Source: an archaeon | GTDB taxonomy: Archaea > Nanobdellota > Nanobdellia > SCGC-AAA011-G17 > GW2011-AR20 | NCBI GenBank assembly: GCA_043808705.1 | Contig: JAZDEO010000021.1 | Span: 1 to 63,493, forward strand | Direction of reading: 5' to 3' | Length of the DNA stretch: 63,493 nucleotides | In this document: piece after piece, positions 2,198 through 57,274 of the stretch | Layout: each line of letters begins with the position of its first letter | Position numbering within the stretch: the stretch's first letter is position 1 | Notes under the pieces: generated by a model | Database searches by the model: none | What the model was told of the DNA's origin: nothing | Seen by the model: only the letters and a program-made list of their open reading frames with translations | Translations under genes and position numbers: made by a program

Positions 2198-2309
2198 AAA
2201 GTAAAATTAAGAAAAGGTGTTTTTAAAGGTTATGATTGAACATATTTTGATATTAGAAAATTATATAAAGTGGTTTTTACTTTATATTTATATGAAAAGA
2301 GGTAATTTA

Positions 2310-5300
2310 ATGAAATTTTTCTCTTTATTTATTATTTTAATATTAACAACATCTTTTCCTGTTAAAGCTAATGAACCGGGAGATAATCAAAGTGGAGATA
2401 ATAATGGTGAAGAAATAAACTCATCTGATATTGAAGCTAAGATTAATTCCATAATAACATATGCAGAAAGGTATGAAGCAGGCGTTATTGATTACTTACA
2501 GCTTATTATTCATGCTAATTCTATAAGAGAAGAGATAAATGAAATGCTGGGGGAAGATGCTTTTGAGATTATTGTAGAGAATGAATCAAGGGGTCTTGGT
2601 TTAACAGAAGAGGCTGTCAGAAATATTTTTGGAGACCCAACATATTATGAAGAATGGGTTTGGGTTGAAAATCTCGAACAAGATATGAAGATTGATAAGG
2701 CTGTACCAAGATGGGAAAAAAATGTATTTGATGGTAATAAAATACATATGAGTTTTAATGCCTGGCCGCATGTTCTGAAAGAGGGTGATGAATTAATCTT
2801 TTTCTACAGAGTTGATTTTGATATAAAATTCAAAAAGAATTATGATATAGATATAGACAATATTATTTCTGATGTTAAAGGAGATGCTGAGAATTATTAC
2901 AATACCGGCGAGGGAGAGGATAAGCTTATTGAAAAGATGATGTTTCATCAGAATATATTAATAGGTTATTTAGACCAGAACAGAGAGGATTGTATTAATA
3001 TCATGGATGAGTTATTGGGGAGTGAGAATAAAAAGAAAAAAGAGAACAGAATTGTCTGGAGGCTTGATTTTTATCATGATGAAAACTATAATTTAATATG
3101 TGAAGTTCATATGTGCGATGAATGTGAATGGCCCTGGGTGAATATAGACTTCAGAATTGAGGGAAATATGCCTATTGAAAAGGAATTTATGGATACAGGG
3201 TCTGATAAGGAATATTACAGGGGACTTGAAATTGTTGAATTAAATAATATGCTGGAAAAAGATATTGAGGAGATAAGTAGAATATCCTCTGATATGGAAA
3301 ATAATCTTGAGAGGTTTTTTGTATTAAAAAGCGAAATTGATAAGATAAGCCAGATTCTTGATGAAAAATATTACAATAATTTGAATGAAGATGAGAAAAA
3401 AGAGATATTTAAAGAAAGGCTTAATTTTCTGGATGGGGTTTTAAATAAATATGGAAATATTGAAAAATCCCCGTTTGATGAAACAAGATATGAAATTGCT
3501 ATTTTCAAAGATGTTATTGAAAGGCAGGATTCTTGGTGCATGTATATTGAAGATGAACAGTGCGGATTGGAAGAGGGTTGTTATAATGGAGAATGTATTT
3601 ATGCTTTGGGTGGTGTAGAAGATTGCGGCAATGGTATTGATGATGACAATGATAATATAATTGATTGTAATGATCCTGACTGTGCAAGGGACTGCGGAAG
3701 ATTATGCGAGGGGGTTTGCACAGGAGAAGAGGGTTGTTGGAGTAATACTGATGAATTATGCAAAGATACTTGTAAAAGCAGCGGATGTTGGGATTGTAAG
3801 GAAAATTGCGACAGTGTATGTGGGGAATGTTGGAAATGCACAAATTCTGATGATTTAAAAGAGGTTTGTCATGATTGCTGGATATGCCAAGATGATTCAT
3901 ATGGCCATGGATGCAGAGAGGAATGCGAATCTTGCAATGAATGCAGGGAAAATTTAGAAGATGGTGAAGAAGGATGCGAGAGTGAATGCGAATCTTGCAA
4001 TGAATGCGAGAGTGAATGGAACAATAAGAATTGCAAGGAAAAGTGCGGAGAAGATGAATTATGCTTAAATGCTTGTAAAGGAGAAATTATAGAATGTGAA
4101 GAAGGATTTTTTGATTGCGATTTTAATGGAGAATGCGAATCAAAAGAACCTTGTAAATCTGATATGGAGATTTGTGATGATAAAACAGATAATAATAATG
4201 ATGGTTTTATAGATTGCGAAGACATAGGGGCATGTCAAGATAAAAGATGTGATGAAGGTAAATCTTGTTCTGATGGTATGTGTACAGAAATTTATGTGGA
4301 AGAGATTGGAGAGGAATTAGAAGAAGGAGAGGAAGGGACAGGAATTGAAGAAGATGTGCTTGAAGAAGAACATGAAGAAGGAGAAGAATCTGGATGCGAA
4401 CGTGTTGAAAACTGTGGGGAAAATTCAATTTGTTCTAATGCTAGGTGCAGATATATTGATGTTATAATTGAAGAATATGAAGAAGATGTTGGGAGAGAAG
4501 TTAGTGGGAGTATAGAAGAGACAGTAGAAGAGGTTACTGAAGAAGTGCCTGGCAGGGAGCCAGAGGAAATAGAGTCTGAGGCAGAACCAGAACCTGAAAG
4601 AGAATCTTCACCAGAACCTTCACCTGAAGTAACTAGTGAGTCTGTATTAGATATAATGCTTGGGCGAGTAATCGGATGGGTTACACAGGAGGGATGTGAA
4701 AGTGATGAAGATTGTGGCAAAGGGAGATCTTGCGATACATTTAGGAATAAATGTTATTGTGAATATGGACTTTTTGATTGTAATGGCGGGGGTGAAGGAA
4801 ATGATAAAGATGGTTGCGAGAGCGAAGATCCCACATGTGGTGGTAAGAGAGAGCTCTGTCCTGGTGGATGCCGTGAACATCAATATTGCAATGAAAAGGT
4901 TGGTTGGTGCGAATGTGAAAAGGGTTTTAGGGATTGTGATGGAGACTGGATGAATGGTTGTGAAATAACTGAAGAGGAATGCAAGGGTTGCAAAACAGAC
5001 GAGGATTGCGCAGAGCCGAGATGCTCTGAACAGGGCAATGTTATACAAAAATTTGGGTGCATGAAAGGAGAATCATGGATAGAGGAAAAAGGGCAGTTTG
5101 GACTGGGCGGTGGATGTGTTGTGAATCCCACTGGAAGAATAGATCCTTATATTGATTTTTATGCATGGGGCGAAAAATTTGACAGGTTGGAACAGAGAAG
5201 GAGAATTGAGCAAATGAGCATGCATAAGGGCTGGTGCGAATGGGAACTTGAAAATGTTAAAAAAGAGAGGAAAGAGATTGAAGATTCCTTAAATGAAGAA

Positions 5301-6146
5301 TTTTACCAATGGTTTTTTGAAGAATATGTAAATATAGATCCTGAGAATTTCGAGAGATATATTGGAGGAATATGGGATATTTATTGGAGGATAGTTGATG
5401 TTGATAGAAAAACAGCCGAGATGCTGAATTGTTTAGATATAGAAACATGGCCAGAAGAATATAAAGAGATTAATATAAAATATGAGGGGGATTACGGAAA
5501 TGTTGAAATCTGGGAAGAAAGAAAAGAAGTTGATTTTAATATGGGCTCTAAAGAGTTTCGCGACAAAAGAGAGATGTTTTCGCCTTATATGAAGGCGTGG
5601 ATATTCCCTAATAAAGAATTTGTTAAAAATATGTTTATTGAAAAAATGAAGACGGGTGAATTTTTAGGACCACCAGATGAGCATAGAAGTAGTTTAAGTC
5701 CAAGTGATTTAGAAAAAATAAGGCAGGATGAAGAAGTAATGGGGATTATTAATGAATTAATTGAAAAATATAAAGATGCTGAATTATTTTTTGTTATAAA
5801 GGATAATGAGGAGATCTTATTCAAAATGTTGATAAATGTAAATGAAAATGTTCTTATTAATGCCCAAGTCAATAAAGATCCTGTAGATGAGCCTGATGTT
5901 TATTTCGAGGCTGATTTTGATTTTATTTATAACATGATTGAAAAACAAGAAAAAAGTATAAATGGTGACAAAGTAGAGAATCCGCCATGGGAAAAAAAGG
6001 AGGGAATTGGAAATACTATAAAAGAGATAACAAATAATGCAGAGATGGCAACTGTAATTTTTGGCGGTATTGTATCTGGTGACGTCAAGATAAAACCTTT
6101 AACTGGTCTAAAGTATATGAGATTAATGGATTATATTCTTAAATAA
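2310..6146 (+). CDS. Large secreted Cys/Asp/Glu-rich protein
   Basis: Start moved to the in-frame ATG at 2310, which gives signal peptide MKFFSLFIILILTTSFPVKA. The central ~500 aa are packed with Cys motifs (CESCNEC twice, DCGNGIDDDNDNIIDCNDPDC) and acidic linkers. Confidence 0.85.
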   Translation: MKFFSLFIILILTTSFPVKANEPGDNQSGDNNGEEINSSDIEAKINSIITYAERYEAGVIDYLQLIIHANSIREEINEMLGEDAFEIIVENESRGLGLTEEAVRNIFGDPTYYEEWVWVENLEQDMKIDKAVPRWEKNVFDGNKIHMSFNAWPHVLKEGDELIFFYRVDFDIKFKKNYDIDIDNIISDVKGDAENYYNTGEGEDKLIEKMMFHQNILIGYLDQNREDCINIMDELLGSENKKKKENRIVWRLDFYHDENYNLICEVHMCDECEWPWVNIDFRIEGNMPIEKEFMDTGSDKEYYRGLEIVELNNMLEKDIEEISRISSDMENNLERFFVLKSEIDKISQILDEKYYNNLNEDEKKEIFKERLNFLDGVLNKYGNIEKSPFDETRYEIAIFKDVIERQDSWCMYIEDEQCGLEEGCYNGECIYALGGVEDCGNGIDDDNDNIIDCNDPDCARDCGRLCEGVCTGEEGCWSNTDELCKDTCKSSGCWDCKENCDSVCGECWKCTNSDDLKEVCHDCWICQDDSYGHGCREECESCNECRENLEDGEEGCESECESCNECESEWNNKNCKEKCGEDELCLNACKGEIIECEEGFFDCDFNGECESKEPCKSDMEICDDKTDNNNDGFIDCEDIGACQDKRCDEGKSCSDGMCTEIYVEEIGEELEEGEEGTGIEEDVLEEEHEEGEESGCERVENCGENSICSNARCRYIDVIIEEYEEDVGREVSGSIEETVEEVTEEVPGREPEEIESEAEPEPERESSPEPSPEVTSESVLDIMLGRVIGWVTQEGCESDEDCGKGRSCDTFRNKCYCEYGLFDCNGGGEGNDKDGCESEDPTCGGKRELCPGGCREHQYCNEKVGWCECEKGFRDCDGDWMNGCEITEEECKGCKTDEDCAEPRCSEQGNVIQKFGCMKGESWIEEKGQFGLGGGCVVNPTGRIDPYIDFYAWGEKFDRLEQRRRIEQMSMHKGWCEWELENVKKERKEIEDSLNEEFYQWFFEEYVNIDPENFERYIGGIWDIYWRIVDVDRKTAEMLNCLDIETWPEEYKEINIKYEGDYGNVEIWEERKEVDFNMGSKEFRDKREMFSPYMKAWIFPNKEFVKNMFIEKMKTGEFLGPPDEHRSSLSPSDLEKIRQDEEVMGIINELIEKYKDAELFFVIKDNEEILFKMLINVNENVLINAQVNKDPVDEPDVYFEADFDFIYNMIEKQEKSINGDKVENPPWEKKEGIGNTIKEITNNAEMATVIFGGIVSGDVKIKPLTGLKYMRLMDYILK

Positions 6147-13453: not shown

Positions 13454-13634
13454 TTTTAAGATTCTTTTTAACAATCTTTTTTTTATCTTTCTTGTACATT
13501 CTCTCAAGTTCTTTATCAACCATTATAGTGCTTATATTCCCGCATGTATTGCATCTATATGTTGTGATTAATGAATCAACATTAACAAATATTTTTGTTG
13601 ACCCACATTTTGCACATCTTATTTTTTTAACCAT
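13437..13634 (-). CDS. Small zinc-ribbon protein
   Basis: CAKCGS…CNTCGN in a 65-aa ORF. Short overlaps with both neighbouring genes. Confidence 0.5.
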   Translation of the reverse strand: MVKKIRCAKCGSTKIFVNVDSLITTYRCNTCGNISTIMVDKELERMYKKDKKKIVKKNLKNEIMP

Positions 13635-14371
13635 AAAAAATACGCTCCTACTATTGCTAAGATAATACTAAGTATCTGACCTAGGGGAATTCCAAAATAT
13701 AAAGTTATTGGTTCTTTAAAGAATTCTATTATGAATCTTAATAAGCCGTATATGAAGATAAAGGTCCAAAATAATGTGCCTTCTTTTAAATTTTTATTTT
13801 TAGAACTATTTTTAAAGTAAAGCAATGTAAAAAATATTACTAGATTTTTAAATGCTTCATAAAGCTGTGTTGGGTGCCTGCATCCTTCATAATTGGAAAA
13901 TTTAACACACCATTTTACATTTGTAATTTTTCCCACAAGTTCCCCATTTATGAAATTCATTATCCTTCCTAAGAATAGGAAAAATGCTAAAGGTAAAATA
14001 ATGATATCTGCTATTTTATAGAAACTAATCTTCTTTTTTTTGGAATATACTAAAGTAACTATTATGCCTCCTAAAAAACCTCCGTGAAAGCTCATGCCTC
14101 CATGCCAAAAGGCTATTATCTCTTTAAGATTTGTAAAATAGTAATAAGGTTCATAAAACAATACTTCAAATAATCTGGCTCCTATTATTGATCCTAAAAT
14201 AAAATAGAAAACAAAATCATATATGTTATCTTTGCTTAATCCTATTTTCTCTCTGTTAATCATTAAATACCAAAGCAAGAATAAAAAACCCAGAACATAA
14301 ATAATTCCATAGTATCTTATTTCTAGTCCAAATATACTAAAGAGTACTGGATTTATGTTATGAATAAACAT
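13619..14371 (-). CDS. lgt: Prolipoprotein diacylglyceryl transferase (Lgt) homologue
   Basis: Polytopic membrane protein carrying the Lgt signatures HGGMSFHGGFLGG and RHPTQLYEA. Confidence 0.85.
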   Translation of the reverse strand: MFIHNINPVLFSIFGLEIRYYGIIYVLGFLFLLWYLMINREKIGLSKDNIYDFVFYFILGSIIGARLFEVLFYEPYYYFTNLKEIIAFWHGGMSFHGGFLGGIIVTLVYSKKKKISFYKIADIIILPLAFFLFLGRIMNFINGELVGKITNVKWCVKFSNYEGCRHPTQLYEAFKNLVIFFTLLYFKNSSKNKNLKEGTLFWTFIFIYGLLRFIIEFFKEPITLYFGIPLGQILSIILAIVGAYFLWLKK

Positions 14372-15689: not shown

Positions 15690-16343
15690 TTATCCTCTTG
15701 ATCTCTTGATTAATAATCTTATTATAAAACTAGAGGCAATTAAGAATATTGAAGTAATTAATATATTTAATATTAATGTCTTAAAGAAATCATAGAAGAA
15801 ATATTCTGGAAACATCTTGATTAAATTATCTTTTAATGGATCTAGTAACCATAAGTCATTATTAAAGATAAGAAGATGAAAATTATAAAATAAATTATTA
15901 AAGTTGAATAAGCTTACTATTATTAAAAAGATTATTAAAGAAAGTCCTGAAATCATAAAAGAATCTAAAATTGTTAGATATTCTTTCTTGTATAATAAAT
16001 AAGATGTTAATATTACAAAGATTATTAATAGAATGTACAGAAGAATAAAGGCTATGTTTATTAAATTTTTAACATCTATTAAATGAAGTTTCTCTTTTTC
16101 ATTGAAGAAGCTATTGTCTAAATTATCATTGTTTTTAAAATAATTAAACAAAACATTTTTGTTGTATTCTAAAACGCTTTTATTAATGTTGTTATTAATG
16201 CTGTTTTTTTCAAATTCCTTTTCATAGAAATTATTGTTAAATACTAAAAGTTTGAAATTTAATAAAATTATTAATAAGATAATTAATAAATCTAAGATAA
16301 TTAAAAAAGTATATTTTTTTGTTTTTATGTTACTTAGAACCAT
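15690..16343 (-). CDS. Integral membrane protein (hypothetical, Asn-rich loop)
   Basis: Several hydrophobic helices. 10-nt overlap with the upstream gene. Confidence 0.6.
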   Translation of the reverse strand: MVLSNIKTKKYTFLIILDLLIILLIILLNFKLLVFNNNFYEKEFEKNSINNNINKSVLEYNKNVLFNYFKNNDNLDNSFFNEKEKLHLIDVKNLINIAFILLYILLIIFVILTSYLLYKKEYLTILDSFMISGLSLIIFLIIVSLFNFNNLFYNFHLLIFNNDLWLLDPLKDNLIKMFPEYFFYDFFKTLILNILITSIFLIASSFIIRLLIKRSRG

Positions 16344-17581
16344 CCTAAAAGCATTCCAATACCTAATATTAATAATAATAGACCCATTAATAATTTCATC
16401 AAGCTTCTTTGTGATTTTCTCCAGCTCTCTATGTGTTCTGTTTTCATGCCTTTTGTTACTAAAACCAAGATAACTATTAATGGAATTATGAACATTAGGT
16501 TATAAATCAATAAATAGATTGTTGCCTGAACTGTTGTTACTGAATTTGCTAGCATAGCTAAGATTGCTAGGTAAATCCCTCCTGTACAAGGAAGCTCAAA
16601 CATACTAACTAGAAAGCCTAAAACTATGGCAGCAGGAATATTTGCTTTTTCTGTCCATTTTTGGATAATTCCTTTCTTGCTTTCTGGAATCTGTAAAGAA
16701 ATGCCTTTACCATACCAGAAATAATCTTTTATATTTATTAGCCCAAATATTATTGCCAGAACAGCTGCTATCTTAAATATAATAGAGGAAAATCCAGTAA
16801 GCTGTATTATGCTTAATATTCCGAAACCTGCTAAAAAATATGTAACATAAACTGTAATTACATAAGCTATTCCTGCTTTTATCATTCTACTTCTATTATT
16901 TGAGATTTCTAGTAAAAACATTAACAAAAAGATTAGAACAGCAAATGCACATGGATTAATACCATCTATTAAACCAGATAAAAGGATTAAAGGCATAGAA
17001 ACTTTCTTTTCTATGATTGGTTGATTATCGCTTACTGTTATATTAGTATCGTGACATACCATGCCTTCTAAAGAACAGATTCTGACATTGCTGTTTAAGG
17101 CTTCCTGGATTTTTGGCTCTAGATTTTCTTTTATTGCTGAAGTACCCATTAGATATTCATTGTTTATAACAACTAAAGGGATTCCTCTTTCTTCTAGAGG
17201 TATATTGTTTATACCACAATAATTATTATAAGAATTATAGTTATTTAGGTTATGATAAATTTCTAGTCTAGTAATGTGTATTTCTCCTTTGTACTTGTCT
17301 TCGATTTCATCTATATAGGACTTTATTTGGGCACATTTACTGCATTCCTGACCATAAAAATAAACTACACATAATTCTTTGTTATCATGTCCTATAGAAT
17401 AATTATTTGTTGTTGATATATTCGAGCTACTATTTGAGCTGCTATTCGAGCTACTAATTGAGTTACTAATTAAACTACTATTTATTGAACATAAATCCTG
17501 ATTTGTACATGTATCATTAAAATCTGCATTAACAAAGCTTACAAGTAAAATAAAAAAAAACAATATTAATAATTTCTTCAT
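16334..17581 (-). CDS. Thioredoxin-like domain fused to a CcdA/DsbD-type transmembrane thiol:disulfide transfer domain
   Basis: Signal peptide, Ser/Asn repeat linker, CxxC (GQECSKCAQ), then a TM domain with INPCAF and ELPCTGG Cys motifs. Confidence 0.8.
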   Translation of the reverse strand: MKKLLILFFFILLVSFVNADFNDTCTNQDLCSINSSLISNSISSSNSSSNSSSNISTTNNYSIGHDNKELCVVYFYGQECSKCAQIKSYIDEIEDKYKGEIHITRLEIYHNLNNYNSYNNYCGINNIPLEERGIPLVVINNEYLMGTSAIKENLEPKIQEALNSNVRICSLEGMVCHDTNITVSDNQPIIEKKVSMPLILLSGLIDGINPCAFAVLIFLLMFLLEISNNRSRMIKAGIAYVITVYVTYFLAGFGILSIIQLTGFSSIIFKIAAVLAIIFGLINIKDYFWYGKGISLQIPESKKGIIQKWTEKANIPAAIVLGFLVSMFELPCTGGIYLAILAMLANSVTTVQATIYLLIYNLMFIIPLIVILVLVTKGMKTEHIESWRKSQRSLMKLLMGLLLLILGIGMLLGWF

Positions 17582-17707: not shown

Positions 17708-17803
17708 GGTTAGATGGAGGCAACTTAGAGCTAAAATTAATATCTTCGGATATTAAAGATGATTCTTCGGAATCAAAATATCTAAGCCTTGACCATCATA
17801 ACC
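17708..17803 (+). ncRNA. Unclassified structured RNA candidate
   Basis: Nested helices: GGTTAGATGG/CCATC(A)TAACC, CTTAGA/TCTAAG, and two TTCG-capped hairpins (TTAATATC-TTCG-GATATTAA and GATTC-TTCG-GAATC). A TTTAAATAT box lies ~25-30 nt upstream. Confidence 0.4.
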
Positions 17804-17840
17804 TTTAAATATGCATTCTTACTTTTAATTACTGAAAAAA

Positions 17841-18911
17841 ATGGGTGTGTTAAAAGAAAAAAGAGGGCAGGTTGGTACTGAATTCTTAATTATTGTGGGT
17901 TTTGTAATTGTTGTTATGGTGCCTATTACTATAATGTATCTTCAGTATTCTGGCCAATCAAGTGATACTGTTACAGCTTCTAAAGTAGAGCATATTACAA
18001 ATGAAATTGCTGCTGCAGCTAGTTCTGTTTTTGCTTATGGAGAAGGTTCTCAAACAAAACTTACATTGGATTTTCCTTCCAATATTAAAGAAATAAGATT
18101 TGAGGGAAATGAGGTAATCTTTATTGTAATTAATTCACAGAGTCTGGAGCAGGAAATTGTTCAAGTAACTGATGTTGAATTTATGGGAAATAGTAATATA
18201 TATGTAATGCCTGGTAAAAAAGATATTATTGTAAAGGCTGTTTATGATCCTGTATCTCAAACAAATAAGGTTAGTGTTACAATGCCTTGTGAAGATGGCG
18301 ATATTAGATGTTGTACAACATCTGAAGAGAATCAGATTAATAATGTTTATACTACAAATTATGATTGTAATTATAAATGTTCAAACAAAGCTTGGATATT
18401 AAACTCTTTATGTGATTCTGGTTCTTGTACTGTGGGAGAGGATTGTGTTGCGTCCAGTATAGATTGTCAAGCTGAAGGAGGTACTTGTGTTCAAGTTTAT
18501 GACCCTTGTCCAATAGATCCAATATTAACATACCCTATAGGCATATGTCAAAACACCTTACAGGTATGTTGTAAAGGTGTAGAAATAGCACCCGCATGTA
18601 ATGACGGAGATACCCAATGTAAAACTGGAATTGATTGTCAATATGCTGGATTTTCTGTTCAGTCCTGTGTGTATACATGCCTAAATAACGCTTTTTACCT
18701 ATCTAGTCTTTGTGACAGTTGTCCAGAAGGAGGAGGCAACTGTGTAATAAATGATAATGGGGGTCCTGGTGGTTGTTTCCCTTATGCAATTGGTTGTAGA
18801 GATCCAGGAGAACAAACTTGTAATGGTGGAGGTATGATGTGGAGTTATCCTCCTGATGTTTGTGGTTCTGTATCCTCTTTTAGCATATGTTGCGTTTCTG
18901 ATGGATCATAA
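17841..18911 (+). CDS. Pilin-like protein (class III signal peptide) with Cys-rich C-terminal domain
   Basis: N-terminus KRGQVGTEFLIIVGFVIVV is prepilin-type. From aa 150 onward there are ~36 Cys, including two copies of the module C-x-DGD-x-x-C…C-x-Y-x-C-x-N-x-A-[WF]-x-L-x-S-L-C-D-S. Confidence 0.7.
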   Translation: MGVLKEKRGQVGTEFLIIVGFVIVVMVPITIMYLQYSGQSSDTVTASKVEHITNEIAAAASSVFAYGEGSQTKLTLDFPSNIKEIRFEGNEVIFIVINSQSLEQEIVQVTDVEFMGNSNIYVMPGKKDIIVKAVYDPVSQTNKVSVTMPCEDGDIRCCTTSEENQINNVYTTNYDCNYKCSNKAWILNSLCDSGSCTVGEDCVASSIDCQAEGGTCVQVYDPCPIDPILTYPIGICQNTLQVCCKGVEIAPACNDGDTQCKTGIDCQYAGFSVQSCVYTCLNNAFYLSSLCDSCPEGGGNCVINDNGGPGGCFPYAIGCRDPGEQTCNGGGMMWSYPPDVCGSVSSFSICCVSDGS

Positions 18912-18924
18912 AATTTTTTAAAAT

Positions 18925-19632
18925 ATGAAAAAAACTCAGGTTTCAACGGAATTTTTGATTTTTGTAAGCATGTCTGTAGTTTTGTTAATGGTTTATATGG
19001 CAATAGCCAATAATTTCCTGAATATAGCTTATCAGCAGAAGGAGGTAATATCTGCTCAAGATCTGGCTAAAATATTAAGAAATGAATTTAACCTTGCTTC
19101 AAGGGTTGAGAATGGATATATAAAAGAATTTCAACTGCCTTATCAAGTTGATTATAAAGACTATGATATTGAAATTCCTCCTAGTGGAAGAGAGATTTCT
19201 ATATCCTATGCAGATGATCCTAATATAGACTTTACTGAGATGCTGTCTACTAATGTAAGTGTTATTGGTGCTGTATTAAAACCTGGAAACACCATATTTA
19301 TTAAAAAACAAAATGACAATGTTGTTGTATCATCACCATATTGTGTCAGTTCACAACAAAATACAATAGAGTGTAGATCTGGTAAAGATGTTTGTGTAAG
19401 TGGTACTTTTTCTGTTGAAAAATGCGCCTACAAATGTGTTTTCGGTAACTGGATACTTTGGAGTTTCTGTGATATTTGTGACTCTACTTGTATCATTAAT
19501 GAACCAGACTGTAGTCCTCCATTTACTGCTTGCAGTACTATATCTCCCGGCCTTTCTTGGACTAATGATCCTTGTGGGATTTTTTCAACAGAACTTCCTA
19601 ATCTTAAGCTTTGTTATCAAACAGGAACATAA
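18925..19632 (+). CDS. Pilin-like protein (class III signal peptide-like) with Cys-rich C-terminal domain
   Basis: N-terminus MKKTQVSTEFLIFVSMSVVLL. The C-terminal third contains CAYKCVFGNWILWSFCDIC, related to the module in 17841-18911. Confidence 0.65.
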   Translation: MKKTQVSTEFLIFVSMSVVLLMVYMAIANNFLNIAYQQKEVISAQDLAKILRNEFNLASRVENGYIKEFQLPYQVDYKDYDIEIPPSGREISISYADDPNIDFTEMLSTNVSVIGAVLKPGNTIFIKKQNDNVVVSSPYCVSSQQNTIECRSGKDVCVSGTFSVEKCAYKCVFGNWILWSFCDICDSTCIINEPDCSPPFTACSTISPGLSWTNDPCGIFSTELPNLKLCYQTGT

Positions 19633-19668: not shown

Positions 19669-20883
19669 CTAGTAATTCATCAACTGAATCTTTCTAACAT
19701 TATCCTTGATGTATTTGTCCTTTAATAAAGAAATGATGAAATCATTAAGCTTTGTGAATCTTCTTTTTATTTCTATATAAACTCTATCTTCATCTTTCTT
19801 AATTTCGTAGTTCTGCCATTTTTTAACAAATTCTTCAACATACTTTTCCTCATTTTGTGGGGGCCCATAATGTTTTTTTAATGAACTTAAATTATTATTC
19901 TTAATATAAAACCAAAAGAAAGCTTGTTTATCAAAGCTCCAATCAGATTTTGTAACTTTAAAGCCCTCTTCATTAAGTTTCTTGTTAATGTAAACAAATG
20001 ATTTAAGTAATTTAGATCCAATTACATCTTTTTTACCATCTAAAGGCCAGGCCTTTATTATTAATAAAGTATTATTTCCTGATTCTAGTTTTAATTCAGT
20101 AATGTCTATTTTTTTCTCAATGAAAAAATCATTGCTGGGATTTTTCATAAATTCCTTACAGCTCTTAATGAATTTTTCAAATTTGTCTTCTGATAAAGCA
20201 GCTGCTGCATTTCTATCTTGTTGTACTGGATCTATTACTATTAAAGGACTTAATTTAGCCTTGTTTAATTTTTTAAAAGCTTCTTGATTGTTTTTATAGA
20301 ATTTTGATACATCTATTAGTGTTGATTTATCCCAAGAAGATGCTTTCTCAACTAAGTTAAAAAAGGTTTTATAATAAACTGTTAAGATCTCTAGAACATA
20401 ACCTGAAAATCCCCTTATATATGATTCTGCCCCATAAACATTTTGGGCTTTACAGAATTTTTTAATTAATCTTACTTGATCTGGATCTTTTAAACTAGCT
20501 TTAACCCATTTAGTGTGTAAAGGGCTTACATCAGTTATGTTTTTGGCTTGTTTTGAATCTTCTATGTCTAGAACAGGAATAAGCTCTATTACATAATCTC
20601 CTTTTTTGATTTGAAAATAATCTCTAGAACCGTGAACTAGCTTATATTTCTTTAATCTGCCTTTTAATATATTACTTAGATCCTTATCTTTGTACTTTTC
20701 ATAAGGGAATCTTACAAATACATCTATATCATGACTGTTTTTGAGCCAGGTGTTTTTAGCAAAACTGCCTCCTAGCTCTAGATTTAAATCATCTAGTTTT
20801 AAGCTCTTAAGAACCTTATTTACTATATCTAATACTAGTCTTTCATCTTCTTTACTAGGTTTTATTTCTTCTAGTATTTTCAT
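19669..20883 (-). CDS. cca: CCA-adding tRNA nucleotidyltransferase, archaeal class I
   Basis: GGSFAKNTWLKNSHDIDVFV nucleotidyltransferase motif, with length typical of archaeal CCA enzymes. Confidence 0.85.
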   Translation of the reverse strand: MKILEEIKPSKEDERLVLDIVNKVLKSLKLDDLNLELGGSFAKNTWLKNSHDIDVFVRFPYEKYKDKDLSNILKGRLKKYKLVHGSRDYFQIKKGDYVIELIPVLDIEDSKQAKNITDVSPLHTKWVKASLKDPDQVRLIKKFCKAQNVYGAESYIRGFSGYVLEILTVYYKTFFNLVEKASSWDKSTLIDVSKFYKNNQEAFKKLNKAKLSPLIVIDPVQQDRNAAAALSEDKFEKFIKSCKEFMKNPSNDFFIEKKIDITELKLESGNNTLLIIKAWPLDGKKDVIGSKLLKSFVYINKKLNEEGFKVTKSDWSFDKQAFFWFYIKNNNLSSLKKHYGPPQNEEKYVEEFVKKWQNYEIKKDEDRVYIEIKRRFTKLNDFIISLLKDKYIKDNVRKIQLMNY

Positions 20884-37559: not shown

Positions 37560-40500
37560 TTATATCTTCAGAGAAACTACTTTTGAAATTCCTTGTTGCA
37601 TTGAAACTCCATAGATTTGATCTGCTTCTGAGATAACAGCATCATTATGAGAAACAACTATGTATTGGGCATCTTTAGAATATTGTGTTATTAATTTAGA
37701 GAGTTTATCGGAATTTGTTTTATCAAGAGCTGCATCTACCTCATCAAGTAGATAAAATGAAGCTGGTTGATACTCTTGTATGGCAAATATAAATGCTAAA
37801 GCTGTTAATGTTTTTTCTCCTCCTGATAAGGATCTCACATCTAAGTATTTGTTACCGGATATCTTTACTATAACGTCAATACCTGCATTTAAAGGATTTT
37901 TAGGGTCTTCTAATTCAAAATAGGCAGAACCTTTTGTGGATAATGAAACAAATATCTCTTTAAAGTTTGATGCTATAACATCGAAAGTTCTTATAAATAG
38001 GTCTGTTTTTTTGATTTCTATCTCATTCATCATTATCAAGACATCTTCTTTCTCTATCTTTAGTTTTTCAGCTTTCTCTAATAATTGATCATAATCGTTT
38101 TCAAGCTCTTCATAAATCTCTAAGGCTCTTAAGTTGACATTGCCTATGCCTTGTAATGTTTTCTCGTTTCTTTGTATCTCAAACCTTATTTCGTCTATGT
38201 TTATATTTTTCTTTATCTTTTCATTCTTTAATGGCTCGAATTCTTTGTCTAGAGCTTCTAGTTCAGCCAATAATTTTGCTTTATCAAAAGATACTGTATT
38301 TATTTTTAATTGAACAGCCTTTATTTTCTCTTCTTCCCTTACTAAAGAGGTTTCTTTTTGCTGAATAAATTCATTTATCTTGTTTCTTTTTTCAAATAAG
38401 GACTTGAAATTAGTATAGAACATCTTTTCCTTTTTCTCATTTTCCTTCAATACAGAATTTTTTTCTTTAATCAATTCATTTAATTTAGATATCTCATTTT
38501 TAAATGACTCCATCTCTTTTTCATTGTTATTCATTATTTGGTTTATTTTGTTTGTTTCTTGTTGATGGAAAGAAAGCTGTGTATTAATGTTCTTTATTTC
38601 AGAATCTAGATTAAAGATTTTTTCCCTAATGGCTTGATATTGCTTTTCTTGTTCTGTTATAGATCCTATATTTACTGTTTGTTTTTTTACCTTTAATGAC
38701 TCCAGACTTTTATTATTAGATGCTATTTCTTTTTCCTTGTCTGTTACTAATGAATTAAGCTCTTTAATCTTCTTGTTTAGCTCTTGTTTTTCTTTATTTA
38801 AATCCCCTATAGGTAAAGAACTTTTTTCTATCTTTATTATTTCAGCTTCTAAGTCTGCTTTTTCCTTCTTAAATTTATAAATTAAATTTTCATTATCAAT
38901 TCTTTTTTGCTCTGTATTTGAGACTAGTGTCTTTAAAGAAGAAACTTCTGTTTCTAATTTTTGTATTTTGTCTGAGAAGTCAATTTCTTTAAATGCAATG
39001 CCTCTAGATTTTCTAAAACCACCTATCATGGCTCCTGATGTTTCTGTTAAGTCACCATCTAAAGTGACCATTCTTATTTCACCTATACCTATATTTCTGG
39101 CTGTATTTAGATTGTCTACAACTAATGTAGAACCAAAAACATAAGAGAATATATTTTTGAATTTTGGATCAAATTTTATTAAGTCTATAGCAGAACCAAA
39201 TACATCTGATTTTTTATCAAACTTTATTGAAGGACTTGATTTTATCTTGTTTAATGGCAAGAATGTTGCTATCCCTAATTTATTGTCTTTTAGGTATTTA
39301 ATACATTTTGCTGCTATTGCATCATCCTCTACAACTATGCTCTTTAATCTAGGACCTGCTGCAACCTCTAAAGCTAATGAATATTTTTTCTCTACTTCTC
39401 CTAGTTCAGCTACTATATTATAGATTCCCTTGATTCCAGACTCTAGAATCTTTGATGTAGCCAAAGAGTCTAAAGTAAGCTGCTTAGAGGAAATGCTTTG
39501 GATGTTTAGTTTTGCTAGATCCTCATTTTTGTCTACAAGGGTTTGTCTTAGATTAGATAATTTTACAGATAATGCTGAATCCTCATTTAAGGCTTTATTT
39601 AATTCCTGATTCTTTTCCTTAAACTTATTCTTTAAGTCTTTTATGTCTACTAAAGAAGAGCTTTCAATCTTTTTGTCTATGTCTTGAAGCTGGTAGTTTA
39701 ATTTATCAAATTCTCTTACAAGATTTTGCTTTTCCTCTTGTATTTTTAGTATAGCTGATTGAATATTATCTATTGATGTTTCTATATTTTCCTGGCCCTT
39801 TACATTATACTTTTCTCGTAATGTGTTAAGTTCCTTTAGTAACTTAGATTCTGATGAAGATCTTTCTGTTCTTTCTTTCTGTAAATCCTGAATTGATTTC
39901 TTTAGTTCTTGTATCTTTAAATTAAGATCCTTATCATCTAACTTAATTTGAATATTTCTTTTCTGTATCTTTTCTACCTCAAGTTTACAATTCTCTTGTC
40001 TTGTTGTTTTCTTTAATAGGTCTGTTTTAAAGTCCTCTGTATCTTTATGAAGCTTGACTTGTTCTTGTTCCCCTTTTTGTTCTATTTCCTGATTTATTGA
40101 AGAAATTTGATCCTTATATTCCTTAATCTTTAACTTTATTTCATCTATTTTTTTTGTGATTTCATCTATCTCTTTTTGATTTGTGTTTATTTTAGAGTCT
40201 ATATCCTCTCTATTATCTGTTTTTCCCTTTATTTGTAAACTTAAGTAAGTAGCCTTATTCTCTTTAATGTTTTTTTCAATGTTTCTATATTCTAAAGCTT
40301 CGTCTCTTTCTTTCTTTAAGTCCTTTAATCTTGATTTTCTCTCATTTAGGATTATTCCAGCTTCCCCTAATTTAGATTCAACTTTATCCAGTTCATTTAA
40401 AGCCTTAAGCTTTTTTTCTTCATAAATTGAAATGCCTGCTATCTCTTCTATTATCTGTCTTCTCTCTAATGGTTTCATTTCCATGAATCTTATAATGTCA

Positions 40501-42572
40501 CCCTGAAGTATTATGTTATGGCCCTCTACATCTATCCTTGCAGATGCTAGCATGTCTGTTACTTCTTGTTTGTTCATTACTGTACCGTTTAATTTGTAAA
40601 CAGAAATGCCTGATCTTTTTAATATCCTAGTTATTTCTACTTTTTTGTCATCTATTGCAAAATCCTTACTGGAGTTATCAAATACTATTGAGACTTCTGC
40701 TTCTTTAGCTGGTTCTCCTAATTTGCCGCCATTATAGATCAAATTTATTGACTTTTCTGCCCTTAAGCTCTTGGCTGAGCTTTCCCCTAGAACAAAACAG
40801 ATCATGTCTATAACATTAGAGTTATGCACAAATATTCCATTACCAATAAAATTATGGCAATTTGGTATTGTTAAGTCATAAACATAATCTTCTCCTTTTA
40901 CCTTTTCTATAGAGGTTATTTTATCCCAGAATATATCTGAAGAGGATATGTTTTTTAATATCTGAATAATTTCTAAGGCTTTTTCTAGTCTTTCTGATGA
41001 TTCTTTTTTAAGAAAATCATAAAGATTCTTTAAATTATTTTGTTTTGCATTAAATAAGTTTTTAGACCAATTATCTGTTATTGTTGATCTTGAAACATTA
41101 ATGTTCTTGGCTACATATGCATTTGATATATTTAATTCTTTTAAAAATTTAGTTAAGTATTTTTGATCTAATTGTATATTATCATTTAGGTTTTTTATTA
41201 TTTTTACCTTGTTTTCAAATATCTTTAGAGAGTCTATAACTCCTAATCTTGTTGGATTACATCTATTCTCATTATAAGCTGCAAATCTTGGATGTTCTTT
41301 TCTTAATGGTTTATAATCTATATAGAGAAGATTTCTACATTCTTTTATAAGGAAATTTACTTGTAAAGGTAATAAATCAATATTTGGATTTGGAATTATC
41401 TTTTTATTTAGAAATTTAGAAAGCCTTTCTTTTTTATGCTTACATCTTATAGGAATGTTCTTATATAACTTTATTAAATCTTGACTATTTTGAACATAAA
41501 GAAAATAATATTTCTTTTTTATCTTCTTTTCTGTATTTGTTGCATATTTTAGCTTTTCTTTTATTGATGAAACTATTCCAAATCTTAACAAAGAAAGCTG
41601 AACTTGATTAGCTAGATTTTTGCTTTGTGTACAATATTCAAAGCCCCTAGAATCTTTACCAACATAAGCATCACAGTCAAATAATCCAGCCAAGAAGTTT
41701 GCTAATACTGATTGTTTTGCAAATAGTATTTCTGAGGGAATATGTTTGTCTTCCTTGGTGTATTTATTTTTAAATAAATCAATAAAATAATCTGACAATT
41801 CTTTAGAATAACAATAGATATTGAATGCTTTTGATTTGTTCCAATTGCTTTCTGTGATCTTGTTAAATCTTAAACTTTTTGCTATTTTTTTGAAGTCATT
41901 TATTAATTCTTTATCTTGATTTATAAAATCTATTCTTGTTGATCTTACAATATAACCGTCTCCAACAACATAGCCTAGAAATCTTGCAATTTCCTTATTA
42001 AGGAATTTAGGAATATTATATTTTTTATTACTTTTATTAGTCTTATTAGTAATTTCTGGAAGTTTTATGTCCTTTTCAGGAAAATTTAATATTCTTGGGG
42101 TGGCAATTAAATCTGATTTCTTTAGATTTCTTACAAGTTCTGATTCTATTTTATTATCTTTAAAAATCATAACTGGATGACAACCAGTAGTTGTTACTTT
42201 TTTTCCTGTGCTTGTTGTTATTTCATATAGATAAGGCTCTCCTTTTCTTTTTATAAAGGCAGATATATCTTTTTCAACAACCTTCATGCTTTTTGGCTCT
42301 AAACCCCAGGTCTTGATATTTTCCTTATTTTCCGAAGTAAATACTCCATCATCTAACTTGATATGATAATTAGAATTATTTAAGGCAGAATCTACTATTT
42401 CACCTATATATTTTAAAGAGCCATCACTTAATAGGATTTCAGTATCCCATCTTGTGCTTTTTCCTGATCCATTTGGGCCTAGAATGAGATTAAAGTTATT
42501 ACCAAAAATAAGTTCTGTTTTCTTTGCGAATGATTTAAAACCTCTAGCTGATACGGATTTTATTATTGTCAT
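37560..42572 (-). CDS. smc: SMC chromosome segregation ATPase, interrupted by an intein
   Basis: N-terminal Walker A region, long coiled coils, hinge domain (GIYNIVAELGEV…IATFLPLNKI), C-terminal LSGGEKTLTALAF signature and Walker B LLDEVDAALD. The protein is 1670 aa including a 546-aa insertion. Confidence 0.9.
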   Translation of the reverse strand: MTIIKSVSARGFKSFAKKTELIFGNNFNLILGPNGSGKSTRWDTEILLSDGSLKYIGEIVDSALNNSNYHIKLDDGVFTSENKENIKTWGLEPKSMKVVEKDISAFIKRKGEPYLYEITTSTGKKVTTTGCHPVMIFKDNKIESELVRNLKKSDLIATPRILNFPEKDIKLPEITNKTNKSNKKYNIPKFLNKEIARFLGYVVGDGYIVRSTRIDFINQDKELINDFKKIAKSLRFNKITESNWNKSKAFNIYCYSKELSDYFIDLFKNKYTKEDKHIPSEILFAKQSVLANFLAGLFDCDAYVGKDSRGFEYCTQSKNLANQVQLSLLRFGIVSSIKEKLKYATNTEKKIKKKYYFLYVQNSQDLIKLYKNIPIRCKHKKERLSKFLNKKIIPNPNIDLLPLQVNFLIKECRNLLYIDYKPLRKEHPRFAAYNENRCNPTRLGVIDSLKIFENKVKIIKNLNDNIQLDQKYLTKFLKELNISNAYVAKNINVSRSTITDNWSKNLFNAKQNNLKNLYDFLKKESSERLEKALEIIQILKNISSSDIFWDKITSIEKVKGEDYVYDLTIPNCHNFIGNGIFVHNSNVIDMICFVLGESSAKSLRAEKSINLIYNGGKLGEPAKEAEVSIVFDNSSKDFAIDDKKVEITRILKRSGISVYKLNGTVMNKQEVTDMLASARIDVEGHNIILQGDIIRFMEMKPLERRQIIEEIAGISIYEEKKLKALNELDKVESKLGEAGIILNERKSRLKDLKKERDEALEYRNIEKNIKENKATYLSLQIKGKTDNREDIDSKINTNQKEIDEITKKIDEIKLKIKEYKDQISSINQEIEQKGEQEQVKLHKDTEDFKTDLLKKTTRQENCKLEVEKIQKRNIQIKLDDKDLNLKIQELKKSIQDLQKERTERSSSESKLLKELNTLREKYNVKGQENIETSIDNIQSAILKIQEEKQNLVREFDKLNYQLQDIDKKIESSSLVDIKDLKNKFKEKNQELNKALNEDSALSVKLSNLRQTLVDKNEDLAKLNIQSISSKQLTLDSLATSKILESGIKGIYNIVAELGEVEKKYSLALEVAAGPRLKSIVVEDDAIAAKCIKYLKDNKLGIATFLPLNKIKSSPSIKFDKKSDVFGSAIDLIKFDPKFKNIFSYVFGSTLVVDNLNTARNIGIGEIRMVTLDGDLTETSGAMIGGFRKSRGIAFKEIDFSDKIQKLETEVSSLKTLVSNTEQKRIDNENLIYKFKKEKADLEAEIIKIEKSSLPIGDLNKEKQELNKKIKELNSLVTDKEKEIASNNKSLESLKVKKQTVNIGSITEQEKQYQAIREKIFNLDSEIKNINTQLSFHQQETNKINQIMNNNEKEMESFKNEISKLNELIKEKNSVLKENEKKEKMFYTNFKSLFEKRNKINEFIQQKETSLVREEEKIKAVQLKINTVSFDKAKLLAELEALDKEFEPLKNEKIKKNINIDEIRFEIQRNEKTLQGIGNVNLRALEIYEELENDYDQLLEKAEKLKIEKEDVLIMMNEIEIKKTDLFIRTFDVIASNFKEIFVSLSTKGSAYFELEDPKNPLNAGIDVIVKISGNKYLDVRSLSGGEKTLTALAFIFAIQEYQPASFYLLDEVDAALDKTNSDKLSKLITQYSKDAQYIVVSHNDAVISEADQIYGVSMQQGISKVVSLKI
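40821..42458 (-). mobile_element. Intein (546 aa) with LAGLIDADG homing endonuclease, inserted in the SMC P-loop
   Basis: GPNGSGK|S-TRWDTEILLSDG…NCHNFIGNGIFVHN|SNVIDMICFVLG. Excision restores GPNGSGKSNVID. Block B TGCH is present. LAGLIDADG motifs are LGYVVGDGYI and LAGLFDCDAYV. Confidence 0.85.
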
Positions 42573-42608: not shown

Positions 42609-43469
42609 TTACCCCTTATTTTTTATTCTTTTATTATGCACTTTTAAATAAGTTCTTATGAAATATTTTAAAAAGTAATCTTCATCCTTTTGTAATGCTT
42701 TATAATAAGCTTTTCGCTTCTTTTTTTCTATAATCAACATAGGATAGCTATTATGCCATAATATATGGTTAATAATCAATCTTCCTATTCTTCCATTACC
42801 ATCACCAAAAGGGTGTATTCTTTCAAATCTATAATGTGCTTTAGCTGATAATTCCACTGGATTGATTTTAGATTTAGCAATAAAACTGATTAGATCATTC
42901 ATAAGTTGCTCAACATCCTGCCAGTCTGGGGCTATGTAATTGCCTATTCTTACAAGATAATCTCTATATTTTCCAGAAATATCTTGTTTTGTTTCTCCAA
43001 ATATTCTTTTGTGCCATTCTAATATTATTTTATTAGAGATTATCTCTTTATTTTTTAACATATCTAGGAATACTTTAGAATGATTTTCAGTTTCTTTTAT
43101 GTCTCTTAATGGTCTATTCGGAGCTATGTTCTCTTTGATAATCTCTCTTGTCTCTTCTAAGGTTATTGTAGAGCCCTCTATTGCATTTGTATTATAAGTA
43201 AAGGCTATAGATATTTCTTTTAATTCCTTATCTTTTACTGTTTCAGGATATTTCTTCCATTCTTCCTGGAAATTATTTTTTATCTTCTCTAGTTTAAGGT
43301 ATAAATCTTCTTTTTCTTCTTTTATTAATTCTTTTTTTAATAGATCTATATTTTTTGGAATCTCTTTCCCTAGATATTTTTCTTTGGTTATTATCTTACT
43401 TCCTTTTCTAAATGAGTGCTGCAAATAAAGATATTCTTTATTTCCTTTTATTTTTTTTATAATTCTCAT
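42609..43469 (-). CDS. Fic/DOC family protein (AMPylase-type)
   Basis: Fic motif HPFGDGNGRIGR. An upstream TNAIEG matches the (S/T)xxxE(G/N) inhibitory helix motif. Confidence 0.85.
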   Translation of the reverse strand: MRIIKKIKGNKEYLYLQHSFRKGSKIITKEKYLGKEIPKNIDLLKKELIKEEKEDLYLKLEKIKNNFQEEWKKYPETVKDKELKEISIAFTYNTNAIEGSTITLEETREIIKENIAPNRPLRDIKETENHSKVFLDMLKNKEIISNKIILEWHKRIFGETKQDISGKYRDYLVRIGNYIAPDWQDVEQLMNDLISFIAKSKINPVELSAKAHYRFERIHPFGDGNGRIGRLIINHILWHNSYPMLIIEKKKRKAYYKALQKDEDYFLKYFIRTYLKVHNKRIKNKG

Positions 43470-43621
43470 ATAATATATTACCATTACAAAATATTTAAAT
43501 GTTTCTATTTTAGGATTTTTGTAATGATAAGTTTAATGGTTCTAAAAAAATCGATTGGTCTTTTAGATTACTTATTAGTAACATAAATAACTTTTGGTAT
43601 TTTAAAATAATTAGACTAAAT

Positions 43622-57272: not shown

Positions 57273-57274
57273 AA

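Follow-up and report, generated by a model that had tools for sequence, protein, structure and literature searches.

A tandem pair of pilin-like genes with a repeated cysteine module in a DPANN archaeon: candidate modular pilins

INTRODUCTION

We analyzed two adjacent genes, called A and B here, on a 63,493-nt stretch of DNA from an archaeon of the Nanobdellota (contig JAZDEO010000021.1 of assembly GCA_043808705.1; hereafter the window, or contig C21). Each gene encodes a pilin-like protein that ends in one or two cysteine (Cys)-dense modules. Our preferred reading, with moderate confidence, is that A and B are modular pilins and that they would display a binding module which diversifies rapidly on a scaffold of disulfides.

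DPANN archaea are believed to spend their lives attached to other cells; to our knowledge, little has been established about what mediates this contact and the choice of partner. Conserved across a family, separate from the pilus operon and equipped with a private, fast-evolving Cys module, the A-B pair offers a concrete, small and expressible candidate for a contact surface.

RESULTS

Two paralogous genes with repeated cysteine modules

The host assembly comprises 971 kb in 62 contigs, is rated 100% complete and 0.91% contaminated, and has a G+C content of about 27-33%. One homologue of A (P0004) bears the NCBI label 'Nanoarchaeota archaeon', in line with a DPANN-type host. Genes A and B are co-directional, with a gap of only 13 nt between the stop codon of A and the start of B (Table 1). 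The N-terminus of A consists of the leader MGVLKEKRG followed by QVGTEFLIIVGF, so that its predicted cleavage site reads KRG/QVGTEFLIIVGFVIVVMVPITIMY (QVGTEFLII); that of B consists of MKKT followed by QVSTEFLIFVSM, with a predicted cleavage site reading KKT/QVSTEFLIFVSMSVVLLMVYMAI (QVSTEFLIF). An earlier note, made by a model from the sequence alone, had described both open reading frames (ORFs) with these boundaries and with these leaders, including the Thr at position −1 of B, and all of this was recovered.

Every Cys of A (28) and of B (12) is confined to the C-terminal part of the protein. Cys makes up 7.9% of A, which ranks seventh among the 1001 host ORFs of at least 100 aa (median 1.0%, 99th percentile 6.9%). 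The two proteins align by BLASTP across 231 residues (E 2e-12), with A 259-305 and B 149-193 forming a further aligned segment (38% identity, E 3e-6). Judged by this similarity, A and B are paralogous proteins.

The C-terminal parts contain three copies of one module, two on A and one on B, the module region following directly on the last strand of the body (..VSVTMPC..). Aligned to each other, the three copies share 16 invariant columns, 10 of which are Cys, and their pairwise local alignment scores lie 6-12 standard deviations above those of shuffled sequences. The module proposed in the earlier note is therefore a real unit, shared by both proteins and repeated.

A module found only on this pilin lineage

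We searched for the module in sequence, profile and structure databases. It matches no Pfam or NCBIfam family, its profile has no match among Protein Data Bank (PDB) sequences at E<=10, and a word-indexed sequence search with A 146-356 returned only A itself. A query of the ESM Atlas with the Cys half gave no usable feature match, and the structural rows that it returned had template modeling (TM) scores of 0.21-0.32. The module profile detects only the three known copies in the host genome and, across 27 genomes of the same family, has matches in 12, all of them in A- or B-type pilins. Against 5.8 billion protein clusters (183-2000 aa), it found only 10 proteins besides A and B; these are all 197-215 aa long and five are annotated with PF04021, the Pfam class III signal family.

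Structural comparison was equally unproductive. The closest neighbor of the module model in VIA-align reached Z 3.3, and rows for FnI and EGF domains matched this low-confidence model at Z 2.0-2.3 across 31-33 residues. Only the central hairpin (DCNYKCSNKAWILNSLCD) was modeled with some confidence, at a predicted local distance difference test (pLDDT) score of about 83. Our literature search found no description of the module or of Cys-module pilins in DPANN. A known, widely annotated domain, which would have undermined the earlier note's interpretation, was not found for the module in Pfam, NCBIfam or the PDB sequences. None of the databases searched contains this module type, and it is restricted, as searched, to the A/B pilin lineage.

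We rejected a metal- or heme-related role as the main reading of the module Cys, given that the modules lack His, contain no CxxCH and at most one CxxC each, and have an even number of Cys in all 20 tabulated segments.

A fixed cysteine scaffold in rapidly changing modules

We compared A and B with their counterparts in the closest relative (locus L050). The bodies are 73% identical for A and 86% identical for B, and the aligned Cys are kept at 23 of 27 positions in A and at all 11 in B. The modules are only 29% identical and their non-Cys positions only 27-31%. Module sequence thus changes around a fixed Cys scaffold, at several times the rate of the bodies, and we therefore read the modules as the part that would contact a ligand.

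Pairwise scores separate the modules into types. The first module of A, the first module of the L050 A protein and the modules of proteins P0003 and P0004 belong to type 1; the second modules of both A proteins and the modules of both B proteins belong to type 2. As type 2 comprises A's second module and B's module in the host genome as well as in L050, the common origin of these two predates the split from L050.

Among relatives, the number of module copies varies from 0 to 2, and the module is absent at L016/G089. Its smallest form is a core of 41-53 aa with 6-8 Cys and the pattern C-x-[LY]-x-C-x-N-x-x-W...C; a middle form spans about 75-80 aa and is followed by an acidic D-x-D-x-D-G-like stretch; and a large form, found in P0003, P0004 and L051, has 14 Cys over about 100 aa. 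Two units of this large form occur in A and in the A protein of L050. B-type proteins usually lack Cys; the exceptions with a module are B itself, its counterpart in L050, that of G065 and a few representatives. With 40 Cys in the host pair and 42 in that of L050, these two pairs exceed all others of the family in Cys load. Taken together, the constant Cys framework, the rapid change of the loops, the varying copy number and the transfer between neighboring paralogues are as expected of an exposed recognition surface.

In the A-type genes L009, L010, L014 and L015 (of genomes G100, G028, G077 and G184), a short module with eight Cys is followed by an acidic D-x-D-x-D-G-x-x-x-D-like stretch, which may resemble calcium-binding loops.

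Class III leaders and pilin-like bodies

Class III leaders are marked by a short charged segment, a small residue at −1, Gln at +1, Glu at +5 and then about 20 hydrophobic residues, and A and B both show this pattern, with the Thr at −1 of B as an atypical feature. The Gln and Glu are nearly invariant, as Q10 and E14 within the A family and as Q5 and E9 across an alignment of 41 B-type relatives, which bears out the earlier note's description of the leaders as prepilin-type. In the passages of PMC2910488 that deal with QXSXEXXXL/DUF361 proteins, the Gln is the +1 residue of the cleavage site and the proteins are processed by the peptidase EppA. PF04021 describes this DUF361-type signal with a gathering cut-off of 23.7 bits; at E<=0.1, it matches 7 of 18 A-type relatives (best E 1.5e-6) and 13 of 41 B-type relatives (best E 4e-5).

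We tallied the residue at −1 after dropping duplicate N-termini and those without a Q-x3-E motif. Across 50 unique N-termini of A-type relatives, it is Ala in 23, Gly in 17, Ser in 9 and Thr in 1; across 38 of B-type relatives, it is Ser in 15, Ala in 10, Gly in 7, Thr in 1 and another residue in five. The B protein of the closest relative, L050, has Ala. The Thr of B is unusual, yet, going by these tallies, its family tolerates small residues at this position.

The bodies have relatives of their own. At E<=1e-3, a search of 1.84 billion representatives gave 342 that are related to B, mostly 125-150 aa long and aligning to B 1-135. DUF7266 (PF23928), a family of no known function whose span does not include the Cys module, weakly matches 22 of the 41 B-type relatives (best E 2.1e-6). 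It also matches B', a second B-type protein of the host genome described below, at 24.5 bits (E 2.4e-5), short of the 27.6-bit cut-off, and has no Pfam match to B itself.

An AlphaFold2 model of A, built from an alignment of 18 rows, consists of a 59-residue helix (residues 8-66) and a beta-sheet (residues 71-147), with pLDDT above 90 over residues 50-150. Profile searches of the PDB sequences gave nothing meaningful for the B family (best E 0.66), and for the A family the top match was a 'Flagellin' chain at E 0.79. Fsx1 (7p4l) was considered as a fold match and rejected (Z 3.3-3.8, root-mean-square deviation up to 8.8 Å). A complex prediction for the truncated chains A 34-150 and B 27-139, run with no controls, scored 0.01 and gives no verdict either way. 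Together, the class III leaders, the Q+1/E+5 pair and the helix-plus-sheet body predicted for A support the view that A and B are type IV pilin-like.

The pair as a stand-alone duplicate of a pilus operon's first two pilin genes

The earlier note had proposed looking for a prepilin peptidase and a pilus ATPase elsewhere in the genome, and both are present. The genome has one Peptidase_A24 gene (PF01478, 52.6 bits), an ORF of 281 aa on contig C1 with both Asp motifs, and four T2SSE-type matches. A pilus locus on contig C13 (L018) is two-armed. One strand encodes KaiC, two T2SSF platform proteins, a 502-aa T2SSE ATPase (116 bits) and two proteins without assignment; the other encodes A' (136 aa), B' (126 aa), a 167-aa pilin-like protein, an 862-aa VWA protein and a 308-aa pilin-like protein. 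No peptidase was seen in this 15-kb locus, the only PF01478 match being the gene on C1. A' aligns to A at E 1.3e-14.

We found relatives of A in 83 of 201 genomes of an order-level sample, mostly through the body, and in 16 of 20 genomes of the same family. The tandem order of A then B is kept across the family's loci, mostly with overlapping stop and start codons. Used as a single query, A had no confirmed relative in metagenome contigs; an A-type alignment found nothing in genome contigs and 45 loci in metagenome contigs. At 28 of these 45 loci, at least one operon partner lies beside the A'-type gene, and the full two-armed layout occurs at six. None of the Cys-bearing A-type genes has operon neighbors, the nearest case being L030 with an ATPase about 6 kb away.

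A maximum likelihood tree of 49 A-type bodies splits into two clades at 100/100 support when rooted at its midpoint, with rows gathered by their similarity to A; 47 of about 60 collected ORFs were kept for it, excluding those shorter than 125 aa, those lacking a Q-x3-E motif in their first 45 residues and duplicates. The stand-alone clade has 18 rows, including A, and 14 of them have at least six Cys. The operon clade has 31 rows, including A'; 23 have an operon context and none has six or more Cys. On this evidence, A-B is a stand-alone duplicate of A'-B', the first two pilin genes of a widely conserved pilus operon.

Other candidates for pilus functions were seen in the same genome. Two class III-type proteins of 152 and 402 aa (C51:20886-21344 and C28:22496-23704, both + strand) share the N-terminus (K)AQSAMEY[IL].TYGWAILVVL, and C28 also carries a second T2SSE ATPase, which makes a further pilus system probable. 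Inside the window, a protein with PIN, T2SSE-like ATPase and KH parts (380-2197, − strand) accounts for the T2SSE match; it is not a pilus motor.

One alternative is that A, B or both are major shaft subunits, either of a separate filament or of another form of the C13 pilus. The entire fiber would then be coated with Cys-rich knobs, for stability or as a surface coat, in place of a low-copy complex at the tip or for adhesion. Major pilins are frequently encoded away from the assembly locus, the stand-alone pair is present in 16 of the 20 sampled family genomes, the Cys-free version in L016 looks like a plain pilin, and the operon's four pilin-like genes and giant VWA protein resemble a block of minor pilins and adhesins, which would place the major pilin elsewhere. 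We nevertheless judge this arrangement unlikely: two bulky modules of about 100 aa on each subunit would be hard to pack, other small pilins with Glu at +5 (A', B' and the protein at C51:20886) are available as the major subunit, and changes in module length and copy number (0-2) among close relatives are easier to tolerate in a low-copy subunit.

A second alternative keeps A and B out of any long filament. Their class III leaders would serve for export and for anchoring in the membrane or a pseudopilus, in the manner of the substrate-binding proteins of the Sulfolobus bindosome, and the Cys part would be a surface receptor or ligand-binding protein. The pair never lies beside assembly genes and, in the parts of PMC2910488 on this subject, class III leaders also occur on archaeal surface proteins outside pili; sections of PMC13705601 likewise describe functionalized type IV filaments. 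This is improbable here, since the bodies are clear paralogues of the operon's A' and B' and keep Q+1, E+5 and the helix-plus-sheet arrangement, while the module resembles no binding-protein family.

Observations that weigh against modular pilins

Several observations count against our preferred reading of A and B as modular pilins with a disulfide-scaffolded binding module. A scores only 13 bits against PF04021 (E 0.11), below the cut-off, and B has no match to it in the Pfam scan; E values of 1e-5 to 1e-6 against this model come from relatives only. The Thr at −1 of B lies outside the usual Gly/Ala and is rare in its own family (1/38; 3/40). The model of A has no Foldseek match in the PDB at E<=1e-3. 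In VIA-align, it matched the pilins 6xxd, 8tum, 6t8s, 5v23, 3ci0, 3sok and 4d40 at Z 3.8-4.4, which is in the range of noise, and SH2 domains outscored them (Z 5.0). As these fold searches do not rise above noise, we base the assignment of the fold on its topology and on sequence motifs.

Other points concern the modules and their disulfides. The AlphaFold2 model of the module alone has a pLDDT of 60, and the last 50 or so residues of A fall below 35. Two relatives have odd whole-protein Cys counts (7 and 9), the first of which is explained by a Cys in the leader. VKOR was not found in the host genome; DsbA and DsbB were not searched for. Finally, stand-alone pairs without Cys occur (L016/L028), and the module is therefore not required for the basic role of the pair.

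The neighboring thioredoxin-CcdA gene

The divergent gene upstream of A encodes a signal peptide, a thioredoxin (Trx) domain with the motif CSKC (E 1.4e-5) and a DsbD_2/CcdA membrane domain (E 9.9e-6), both domains scoring above their Pfam cut-offs. This Trx-CcdA fusion would pass reducing power to the cell exterior. The earlier note had pointed to its position next to the pair, and one reading of this is a dedicated three-gene unit of pilins and disulfide isomerase in which the Cys tails are clients of the fusion. The two transcription units are divergent neighbors 259 bp apart, the Trx domain has both the signal peptide and CSKC, the membrane domain has two CcdA-type Cys, and the host genome and L050 carry the family's largest Cys loads.

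We searched the surroundings of A-type genes for homologues of the fusion with phmmer and found none at 15 family loci or at 45 metagenome loci, L050 included. Across the 27 family genomes, five have both the module and CcdA, seven the module alone, ten CcdA alone and five neither. Genome G049, a single contig rated 95% complete, has the module and no match to the Trx-CcdA query, and in most relatives CcdA is not fused to Trx. A second, stronger DsbD_2 gene lies on contig C23, a family that was not searched across relatives. The gene and its adjacency are thus real, whereas the adjacency recurs at none of the 60 related loci and the module and CcdA do not co-occur across the 27 genomes; the functional link that the adjacency hinted at is therefore weakened. 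As a conserved unit, the client arrangement is largely refuted, and we regard it as very improbable.

The host genome encodes many further signal-peptide proteins with 20-86 Cys, so that disulfide-rich proteins outside the cell are nothing unusual in this organism.

Other neighbors of the pair recur among relatives. A CCA gene lies near it at four loci (L025, L029, L050 and L051), and Lit or Lgt lies near it at L032, L033 and L052. The window itself, although archaeal, has homologues of Lit (lipoprotein intramolecular transacylase; 15690-16343, − strand, E 1.3e-30) and of Lgt (prolipoprotein diacylglyceryl transferase; 13619-14371, − strand, E 6e-68). Lipobox-like '..ISGC' leaders begin several ORFs in other parts of the genome. 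At L050, a transposase-like gene of 400 aa lies upstream of A (L050:1069-2271, − strand) and two small unrelated genes stand between A and B (L050:3852-4894, + strand). This locus is therefore undergoing rearrangement.

The upstream intergenic element and other features of the window

The intergenic stretch at 17708-17803 (+ strand, about 96 nt) is locally richer in G+C and folds into a closed multi-branch structure that includes two cUUCGg tetraloop hairpins (17740-17753 and 17761-17774). Its minimum free energy is −32.4 kcal/mol, compared to −19.2 +/- 3.3 kcal/mol for shuffled sequences (z −4.05), and none of 200 shuffles was as stable. The motif TTTAAATA occurs twice around the element, once 24 nt upstream of its 5′ end and once directly after its 3′ end; the second copy, which precedes A, resembles a TATA box. 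The element has no Rfam match at E<=1 and no tRNA match, and neither the host genome nor 26 family genomes contain a homologue. A small non-coding RNA, specific to this genome within the genomes searched, is one possible reading.

Elsewhere in the window, a 1309-aa signal-peptide protein (2217-6146, + strand) has 75 Cys and matches no Pfam family; the genome has at least 10 such large, secreted proteins rich in Cys. An SMC protein (37560-42572, − strand) is interrupted by an intein with a LAGLIDADG endonuclease domain, a Fic-domain protein adjoins a serpin (E 7e-124; 42609-44920, − strand), and two RHS-repeat proteins of 1389 and 559 aa lie side by side (53103-58936, + strand).

Table 1. Positions of the A-B pair, its parts and its flanking features in the window
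Feature	Position	Strand	Basis and remarks
Gene A, 356 aa, 28 Cys	17841..18911	+	ORF; homologues and family tree
A leader, aa 1-9 (MGVLKEKRG)	17841..17867	+	Sequence; cleavage before Q10 inferred
A pilin body, aa 10-148	17868..18284	+	Hydrophobic alpha-1 helix and beta-sheet
A Cys module 1 (type 1), aa 149-252, 14 Cys	18285..18596	+	Alignment and pairwise scores
A Cys module 2 (type 2), aa 253-356, 14 Cys	18597..18908	+	Alignment and pairwise scores
Gene B, 235 aa, 12 Cys	18925..19632	+	ORF
B leader, aa 1-4 (MKKT), Thr at −1	18925..18936	+	Sequence
B pilin body, aa 5-139	18937..19341	+	Alignment of relatives
B Cys module (type 2), aa 140-235, 12 Cys	19342..19629	+	Alignment and pairwise scores
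TATA-box-like motif TTTAAATA	17804..17811	+	Read from sequence; 29 nt upstream of the A ATG, in a very AT-rich region
Trx-CcdA fusion gene	16334..17581	−	Pfam; divergent, upstream of A
Archaeal CCA-adding enzyme gene	19669..20883	−	Convergent, downstream of B

DISCUSSION

We propose a mechanism in which A and B act as modular pilins. The class III leader would be removed before the Gln at +1 by the host's A24-type prepilin peptidase. Once mature, the proteins would be taken up into a type IV filament by way of the hydrophobic helix at their N-terminus and the Glu at +5, and the paralogy with A'-B' suggests that this filament would be built by the Epd-like (System 1) machine encoded on C13. Outside the cell, the Cys modules, two on A and one on B, would fold into disulfide-braced units displayed on the filament. 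Lastly, ligand contact would fall to the modules, as the surface by which a host cell or a substrate is attached to or recognized.

The earlier note had likened the Cys domain to a tip-adhesin decoration; this is a reasonable analogy to bacterial modular pilins, in which a tip position and binding are proposals. The data fit low-copy minor pilins at the tip and a decoration of the shaft alike.

A more specific version of the proposal, which we put forward tentatively and think rather doubtful, is that the A-B pair is a cassette for host or surface specificity. The pair would be an escaped duplicate with a private scaffold, and its modules would be hypervariable recognition heads. Duplication of the scaffold, its passage between the adjacent genes (both of which have type 2) and change at every position other than Cys would be part of this history. 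If so, the modules would decide which partner cell the episymbiont can hold.

We compared A and B with three known systems. The first is the Epd pilus, or System 1, of Methanococcus maripaludis with its peptidase EppA. In its sections on this group, PMC13705601 describes System 1 as having one ATPase, two platform genes and varied pilins and accessory genes, and reports it in the Nanobdellati (DPANN). A and B share its short basic leader and its Gln and Glu at +1 and +5, and the C13 locus likewise has one ATPase, two platform genes and many pilin-like genes, with five class III-like genes of which one encodes the VWA protein. There are differences: A and B fall short of the PF04021 cut-off, the host's peptidase and pilus locus lie on separate contigs (C1 and C13) whereas EppA/EpdA of System 1 are encoded within the cluster, and the Epd major pilin lacks a globular domain in the account given by parts of PMC13705601, unlike A and B with their bodies of about 130-140 aa and their Cys modules. 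By analogy of gene content, not by ATPase clade, the C13 machine appears System-1-like.

The second comparison is with the Thermoproteales. The earlier note had considered archaeal pilins to be poor in Cys, and this describes most relatives in the family, which have 0-2 Cys; Cys-bearing archaeal pilus components have nonetheless been published (in passages of PMC4858521 and PMC13705601). These same passages present type IV pilus components of Thermoproteales with conserved Cys that are thought to form stabilizing disulfides, and a Pyrobaculum arsenaticum pilin with an extra C-terminal domain. Those systems (subsystems 4E/4G) belong to hyperthermophiles and their Cys are read as thermostabilizing, whereas the host of A and B has a small, low-GC genome of the DPANN type. 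In A and B, the Cys are far denser (14 per roughly 100 aa), and their module occurs as a repeat and changes rapidly. Archaeal pilus proteins with Cys are therefore known already, from the Thermoproteales; A and B differ from these by a repeated, uncatalogued Cys module on DPANN pilins.

The third comparison is with the modular pilins of bacteria. The relevant parts of PMC8179133 describe these as a pilin module with a grafted module that is probably exposed at the tip; the survey covered bacteria and proposed a role in adhesion. In the sense of Raynaud et al. (2021), a short linker joins the two parts, and the added module is a catalogued functional domain that is not specific to pilus biology. 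In Streptococcus sanguinis PilB and PilC, whose extra modules are a vWA and a lectin module, respectively, and in CofB of enterotoxigenic Escherichia coli (ETEC), as in A and B, a small N-terminal pilin is joined to an extra C-terminal module, and the number of modules varies in bacterial modular pilins as it does in A and B. The likeness stops at the recognizable functional domain, for the module of A and B is uncatalogued and found only on its own pilin lineage. A and B are also archaeal, and their binding role is a proposal. With these differences in place, the comparison suggests that A and B extend the modular pilin idea, documented for bacteria, to archaea.

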